Assembly: GCF_030384885.1 (NCBI RefSeq)
Contig: NZ_CP128613.1
DNA from: Escherichia coli
GTDB lineage: Bacteria > Pseudomonadota > Gammaproteobacteria > Enterobacterales > Enterobacteriaceae
Reading direction: 5' to 3' (one strand)
DNA: 64,000 bases
Shown here: in pieces, positions 61,861 through 62,542 of the stretch
Numbering within the stretch: the first letter of the stretch is position 1
Layout of the letters: every line of letters starts with the position of its first letter
Notes under the pieces: generated by a model
Told to the model about the DNA's origin: nothing
What the model saw: only the letters and a program-made list of their open reading frames with translations
The model's database searches: none
Translations under genes and position numbers: made by a program

Positions 61861-62542
61861 ATGAGAATTATAACAGCATTGCTGATGTCATTTTTTATTT
61901 TACCTGTTCATGCGGGTGTGGTCATCTATGGTACGCGTATTATCTATCCAGAAAAAACAGAGAAGTTCTCGTACAGTTAATGAATCAAAGCAAAAATGCC
62001 TCTTTGATTCAGGCATGGATCGATGATGGAAACACAACTATCGCGCCAGAAAAAATTCAGGTCCCATTTATTCTCACTCCGCCAGTAAGTCGTGTAGCAG
62101 GAGGTTCTGGCCAACAACTAAAAATAAAAAAATGCCAAACAATTTACCTCACAATAAAGAAAGTTTATTTTATCTAAATGTTATAGACATCCCTCCAAAC
62201 AACCCACAAAATGCTGGAAAAAACAAAATTAAACTTGCATTACAAAACCGTATAAAGTTATTTTGGCGTCCCGAAGGAGTAGCGCCGGTAGATAAAAAAA
62301 GCCTGTCTCAATTAACTATCAAAAAGAAAGATAATGCCATCTCAATAAACAATGAAACAGCGAACTGGATAACGATTACAACTATCAAAGCCCAAAATGT
62401 GAAAGTTAATAATGAAAGTATATTACTACCTCCATTTTCTAATAACGACATTACATTAAAAAATAACAACGCCTCAGAGTATGAACTAACGGTAGTTGAT
62501 GATTACGGGAATAATATCAATAGTAAAATCGCTGCAAAATAA
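61861..62542 (+). pseudogene. Periplasmic fimbrial chaperone (PapD/FimC family), disrupted by two frameshifts
   Basis: Three consecutive ORF fragments in three frames (61861-61978, 61980-62177, 62132-62542) together give a chaperone-like protein (GVVIYGTRIIYPE… / …NASLIQAWIDDGN…PFILTPP… / …ESLFYLNV…IKLFWRP…); the frame changes fall at A-runs at about 61951-61957 and 62122-62129. Confidence 0.8.

Follow-up and report, generated by a model that had tools for sequence, protein, structure and literature searches.

The fimbrial operon near the end of the window, by which we mean the whole 64,000-nt stretch of Escherichia coli DNA analyzed here, raises a question about its chaperone gene. Three consecutive ORFs on the plus strand (61861–61980, 39 aa; 61980–62177, 65 aa; and 62132–62542, 136 aa) stand where a single gene is found in other strains. 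This could be a gene that has decayed, a gene whose expression is switched by slippage at its A-runs, or an intact gene misread at homopolymers; all three possibilities were raised by a reading of the sequence alone, which leaned toward the first. A comparison with related genomes and public contigs leads us to the view that the chaperone is very probably a genuine, vertically inherited pseudogene of a gamma4 "Yeh-like" operon in Escherichia cryptic clade I, and that it decayed stepwise.

The identity of the gene is clear once its frames are joined. A tblastn search of the window with the chaperone of strain 1579 recovers all 227 residues in three frames at 91%–95% identity: residues 1–35 in frame 1 (61861–61965), residues 32–91 in frame 3 (61953–62132), and residues 88–227 in frame 2 (62120–62539). 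Adding one base at each of two sites (sites 1 and 2 in Table 1) gives a single 684-nt ORF. Its translation contains PapD_N at residues 19–141 (Pfam PF00345, E 3.4e-40) and PapD_C at residues 163–219 (Pfam PF02753, E 1.3e-6), and matches the solved chaperones CupB2, YadV, FimC, and PapD (E 1e-33 to 1e-20). The sequence-only reading, which held that the three fragments join into a PapD-like chaperone, was therefore right. The hydrophobic leader ends in VHA, and in the alignments with CupB2 and YadV the stretches GTRIIYP and NRIKLFWRP fall opposite the corresponding motifs. The conserved cleft residues that anchor the C-terminus of the subunit are presumably those numbered Arg8 and Lys112 in PapD, an assignment that draws also on what is known of FimC. 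The cleft Arg lies in fragment 1 and the cleft Lys in fragment 3, and no single fragment has both. Judged by its sequence, the gene would appear to possess what characterizes the PapD-like family (both domains, a signal peptide, and the cleft residues), but not in a single frame; it is a pseudogene of that family and not a working member.

The best full-length NCBIfam matches are of the StcB and YehC type (NF011789 and NF011764; profile positions 1–227 of 227, E 3e-96 and 8e-85). They score 321 and 284 bits, short of the curated thresholds (500 and 372 bits, respectively), and hence the gene is a paralogous relative rather than StcB or YehC itself. Homologues in Citrobacter and Salmonella are 57%–63% identical.

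In this region, the window matches the chromosome of strain 2013C-4282 (NZ_CP027579.1) at 100% identity, and all other complete E. coli genomes reach at most ~93.5% identity over a 2.75-kb query. The RefSeq annotation of that chromosome (PGAP) labels the chaperone gene "fimbria/pilus periplasmic chaperone, frameshifted"; the label of the usher is "frameshifted; internal stop; missing C-terminus". Of the eight complete genomes with the allele, two, 2013C-4282 and EC42405, are listed in the literature as Escherichia cryptic clade I (PMC10100065). The membership of 2013C-4282 in this clade explains the divergence of its chaperone allele.

The gene order is rpsT, a type III effector gene (espX1-like), subunit, chaperone, usher, last fimbrial gene, and nhaR, and it is identical in the intact operon of strain 1579. 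The window operon appears to correspond to O-island 1 (OI-1) of O157:H7 EDL933, which comprises z0020–z0025 and in O157 encodes the motility repressor FmrA (z0021) (PMC10877973). A gamma4 cluster with locus tags 0019–0021 has been named "Yeh-like" (PMC4578781), and we take it to be the same locus. The chaperone gene has a GC content of 34.6%. Adjoining the dead fimbrial operon within this low-GC island is an intact 490-aa ORF (59561–61033), annotated as "type III effector" and equivalent to espX1 in strain 1579; a search of NCBIfam with this ORF gave no match. Between the subunit and chaperone genes, the arms GCCGGTAGC and GCTACCGGT form a strong hairpin that is followed by a U-rich stretch, and none of 200 shuffled sequences folds equally well. 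Attenuator-type hairpins are frequent 3' of fimbrial major subunit genes, and this stem-loop looks like one of them.

Table 1. Positions in the window of the fimbrial genes, the chaperone fragments, and the two frameshift sites
Feature	Position	Strand	Description	Basis
Major fimbrial subunit gene	61277–61810	+	Intact, 177 aa, YehD-like	ORF list, annotation, profile match
Stem-loop between subunit and chaperone genes	61818–61842	+		Fold −17.2 kcal/mol, z −4.0
PapD-like fimbrial chaperone pseudogene	61861–62542	+	682 nt (intact orthologues 684 nt, 227 aa)	ORFs, tblastn, alignments, annotation
Chaperone fragment 1	61861–61957	+	Frame 1, residues 1–32: signal peptide MRIITALLMSFFILPVHA and first beta-strand, cleft Arg (GTRIIYP)	tblastn, CupB2/YadV alignment
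Site 1	61952–61957	+	A6 run, one A short of in-frame A7 (GAA AAA AAC = E-K-N)	Alignments with relatives
Chaperone fragment 2	61956–62132	+	Frame 3, residues 33–91	tblastn
Site 2	62126–62132	+	A7 run in place of the AAGAAAAA (K-I-R-K-M) of intact alleles, net one-base loss	Alignments, eight complete genomes
Chaperone fragment 3	62132–62542	+	Frame 2, residues 92–227 from the Met92 codon: cleft Lys (RIKLFWRP) and PapD_C	ORF list, tblastn, alignment
Usher pseudogene	62555–64000	+	Runs off the window	Annotation, operon alignment, tblastn

We compared eight complete genomes that are at least 96% identical in the chaperone, namely the window's own record (USA) and seven relatives from Viet Nam, China, Korea (two), Canada, Thailand, and France. 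Site 1 reads GAAAAAAAC (A7, in frame, E-K-N) in six of the eight and A6 in two, the window's own record and 2017-02-2CC. A7 is also present here in the commonest E. coli allele (PEKNREV), which represents a cluster of 1655 sequences. Since A7 is found both in six clade relatives and in the commonest E. coli allele, site 1 is a real shortening of a conserved A7 run. Strain 1579, with AGC (Ser33) at this position, is the exceptional allele. A first alignment against that strain had pictured both lesions as a deleted G beside an A-run, an interpretation rejected for site 1, where AGC is unusual; at site 2, the G is truly missing relative to strain 1579.

Four independent draft assemblies, fetched via the 65-aa product, share the identical one-base loss at site 1 together with A7 at site 2. 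All four have the 65-aa plus 136-aa ORF pattern of the window, and three have the 39-aa ORF called as well. In two of the drafts (L012 and L013), a G-to-A change at the equivalent of 61951 makes the run read A7 with the gene still one base short.

Site 2 is out of frame in all eight complete genomes, as A7 in six and as A6 in two; the A6 genomes are the two Korean strains, which have lost a second base. Among intact alleles, R90 is nearly invariant. A separate A5 run at 62120–62124 is unchanged. The present state could have arisen by direct loss of the G, by a G-to-A substitution followed by contraction of A8 to A7, or by contraction of A5 to A4 followed by a G-to-A substitution, and two independent alleles, P0139 and P0141, hint at the last of these routes. 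These two alleles, drawn from the protein collection (on 7 and 4 contigs, respectively), read KIRKC: Arg90 is kept, and one base has been lost from the A5 run after the site-2 G. The site-2 stretch is a recurrent indel spot that has been hit independently across lineages. With several routes to the present state conceivable, homopolymer slippage is only partly demonstrated at site 2. Runs of at least 6 nt make up 6.5% of the chaperone gene, and the probability of both indels falling in them by chance is ~0.004.

These results narrow the sequence-only reading, in which one base was to be added or removed at each of two A-runs. Frame changes do occur at both, and both lesions are losses (682 versus 684 nt). 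The first run, put at about 61951–61957, is one position shorter, 61951 being a G that lies outside it. The second, put at about 62122–62129, was recognized as A-rich, and the actual A7 lies slightly to the right. Both had been described as homopolymer indels. That description suits site 1; site 2 is not a simple change in run length, the G of the intact alleles having been lost or first mutated to A.

Further lesions are found in the usher. Within the window, it has a nonsense codon (CAA to TAA at 62891–62893) and a +T frameshift at ~63029. In the operon alignment, an 894-bp deletion that starts ~12 nt past the end of the window takes away the usher C-terminus, and it is identical in all eight complete genomes. 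Given this deletion and the further lesions, no tract length in the chaperone could restore fimbriae. Seven of the eight genomes, but not the window, have lost 11 bp of the usher between ATATCAGTG direct repeats. As 2017-02-2CC, a close relative of the window strain, has this deletion, its absence from the window points to recurrent deletion or to recombination. The usher TAA codon abuts the same ATATCAGTG repeat pair (62893–62901 and 62904–62912).

Just past the window (L001 8876–9835), the operon ends in a 319-aa gene that is intact in the window strain and in three of the seven relatives; in the remaining four, it carries frameshifts at G or A runs. Other one-base indels in the operons of the relatives sit in A, G, or T runs, several of them in this last gene. 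A further independent lesion is seen in 24A16CRGN010, where an IS1 has entered the chaperone pseudogene at its start codon (L007 3288–3985).

Intact genes are the rule elsewhere in the species: the chaperone is exactly 684 nt long in 57 of 59 other E. coli genomes, sampled evenly down the ranking and including O157:H7. The window's fragments are nevertheless far from rare. Exact look-up places the 136-aa C-terminal ORF on 386 contigs and the 65-aa middle ORF, which is called as a separate gene only where site 1 is also frameshifted, on 398, spread over NCBI, ENA, JGI, and Logan. The sublineage with the contracted site 1 is currently the most often sequenced. A 105-aa product, which indicates that site 1 is in frame, occurs on 13 contigs, including one from the clade I strain HH-P024, and a 98-aa product (A6 at site 2) on 48.

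Exact look-up of the repaired 227-aa protein in two versions, with R and with K at position 90, gave no match in a collection of ~15 billion sequences. A search of 5.8 billion proteins for an intact chaperone of the clade I type gave full-length matches of 94%–95% identity at best; this is weak evidence, as that database is clustered at 90% identity. All nine full-length sequences aligned are sensu stricto alleles. The chaperone of EC42405 (L009 4001–4683) is a mosaic, its 5' part being the clade I allele and columns ~413–590 the sensu stricto allele of strain 1579, and it retains the site-2 frameshift all the same. This mosaic is evidence of recombination between clades inside the pseudogene.

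The lesions, their distribution over the genomes, and the order in which they arose are directly visible in these alignments. The ancestor of the sampled genomes with this allele had already lost one base at site 2 (AAGAAAAA to A7) and had the 894-bp usher deletion; later, in the sublineage that includes the window strain, site 1 went from A7 to A6, as a neutral second hit in a gene already dead. For site 1 and the later changes at least, we infer replication slippage at short homopolymers as the cause. The expected outcome is that no chaperone is made. The intact subunit gene could then not yield fimbriae, because there would be no chaperone and the cleft Arg and Lys lie in fragments of different frames; residual function is probably nil. 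The locus has what one expects of a pseudogene, in that intact orthologues are the norm, the lesions are shared by descent, and the linked usher is degraded. The leaning of the sequence-only reading toward genuine decay is borne out by the frameshift and the usher deletion common to all eight genomes and by the hundreds of contigs with the fragment ORFs, and the check that it proposed, a comparison of A-run lengths in related genomes, settles the matter for decay.

Substitution rates bear on when the gene died. Between the window allele and the intact allele, dN/dS is 0.10 at a dS of 0.29, which means that purifying selection kept the allele working while most of this divergence accumulated, and that its inactivation came comparatively late. 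Within the lineage, the chaperone has a dN/dS of 0.2–0.8, with just 2–7 substitutions between most members, and the usher and last gene have values of 0.13–0.37. Such low within-lineage values are unlike simple neutral drift of a dead operon, and for this reason we invoke recombination with functional alleles; the low dN/dS of the usher likewise suggests recombination rather than drift.

There is a slight chance that the dead operon is not wholly silent, with rare −1 slippage at the A-tracts giving traces of full-length chaperone, or that loss of the fimbria was adaptive and clade-defining for cryptic clade I, with the subunit and last gene kept for a non-fimbrial role. Recoding in a stronger sense, in which two −1 shifts by ribosomal or transcriptional slippage give some full-length chaperone, we regard as a little less probable still. 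Both of the shifts required are indeed −1, and site 2, read from the sequence in the incoming frame, is A_AAA_AAA, a canonical slippery heptamer. Site 1 allows only the slip of a single tRNA: if tRNA-Lys slipped in the P site on A_AAA_A, the native E-K-N-R-E would be restored. This tRNA is slip-prone on A-runs in E. coli, as in dnaX and IS1. The 60 nt downstream of either site, however, hold no stimulatory structure when their folding is compared with that of shuffled sequences (z −1.57 and +0.20), and the intact allele does not conserve the sole SD-like element, a GGAGG that precedes site 2 by 22 nt. Neither is the split arrangement itself conserved, the orthologues being single ORFs. Two low-efficiency events in succession would give a negligible yield, and the partner usher is destroyed.

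Slipped-strand phase variation, with the A-runs acting as a reversible ON/OFF switch of fimbrial expression, is very improbable. It is true that run lengths differ among the relatives, as A6 or A7 at site 1 and A7 or A6 at site 2, and that the same region was hit independently in P0139 and P0141. Yet no ON combination is seen, since site 2 is out of frame in every complete genome with the allele and the repaired protein is missing from the ~15 billion sequences. An ON state would in any case give no function, as the usher lacks 894 bp in all eight genomes and has further lesions. The tracts are also short (6–7 nt). Intact alleles show no variation at either site: a G breaks up their site 2, and the length of the gene is constant in 57 of 59 genomes, so that these sites do not serve the species as a switch.

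Least probable of all, and effectively dismissed, is a sequencing or assembly error in a genome with an intact chaperone: one-base loss at homopolymers is the typical error of long-read platforms, both lesions are of this kind, and certain lesions in the relatives that sit in G8 or A8 runs could be artefacts, but the site-2 state is common to all eight complete genomes from seven countries, the site-1 state is found also in another complete genome and four drafts, the exact fragment ORFs recur on 386–398 contigs across four resources, HH-P024, which was finished with both MiSeq and MinION reads, has the site-2 frameshift product, and neither the usher nonsense substitution nor the 894-bp deletion is a homopolymer error. 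What excludes an artefact is that both states turn up again in many assemblies made independently.

The chaperone of 2013C-4282 should be annotated as a pseudogene, as RefSeq does, and no working Yeh-like/OI-1 fimbria should be attributed to this strain. The site-2 frameshift and the 894-bp usher deletion could together mark cryptic clade I, provided that a survey of all clade I genomes confirms this. The locus also serves as a worked example of stepwise decay, in which a disabling hit is followed by neutral indels at short homopolymers, and it illustrates how a comparison of run lengths over public assemblies can separate decay from both artefact and phase variation without raw reads.

Disrupted chaperone-usher operons are common in E. 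coli (PMC3559732). The pseudogene described here is already flagged in public annotation and is known in kind; a literature search by locus tag found no published description of these particular frameshifts. The sole new detail is that the lesions seem to be common to the cryptic clade I genomes sampled. The closest known system is the intact gamma4 "Yeh-like"/OI-1 operon, whose chaperone has the same chromosomal position and gene order and a nucleotide identity of 93%. Relative to it, the window allele is a divergent cryptic clade I form that has lost one base at each of two sites, and its usher has a truncation, a nonsense mutation, and a frameshift.

Fimbrial pseudogenes are familiar from host-restricted or diverging enterobacterial lineages, the fimbrial clusters of S. 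Typhi being an example. There, too, point frameshifts, nonsense codons, and deletions pile up in one operon, and the decay seen here is the same in kind. Homopolymer-tract contingency loci are known from Neisseria, Haemophilus, and Campylobacter, and the window shares with them frameshifts at mononucleotide runs whose length differs between isolates. It differs from them in that its runs are short, it has no ON state, and its operon has been irreversibly deleted.
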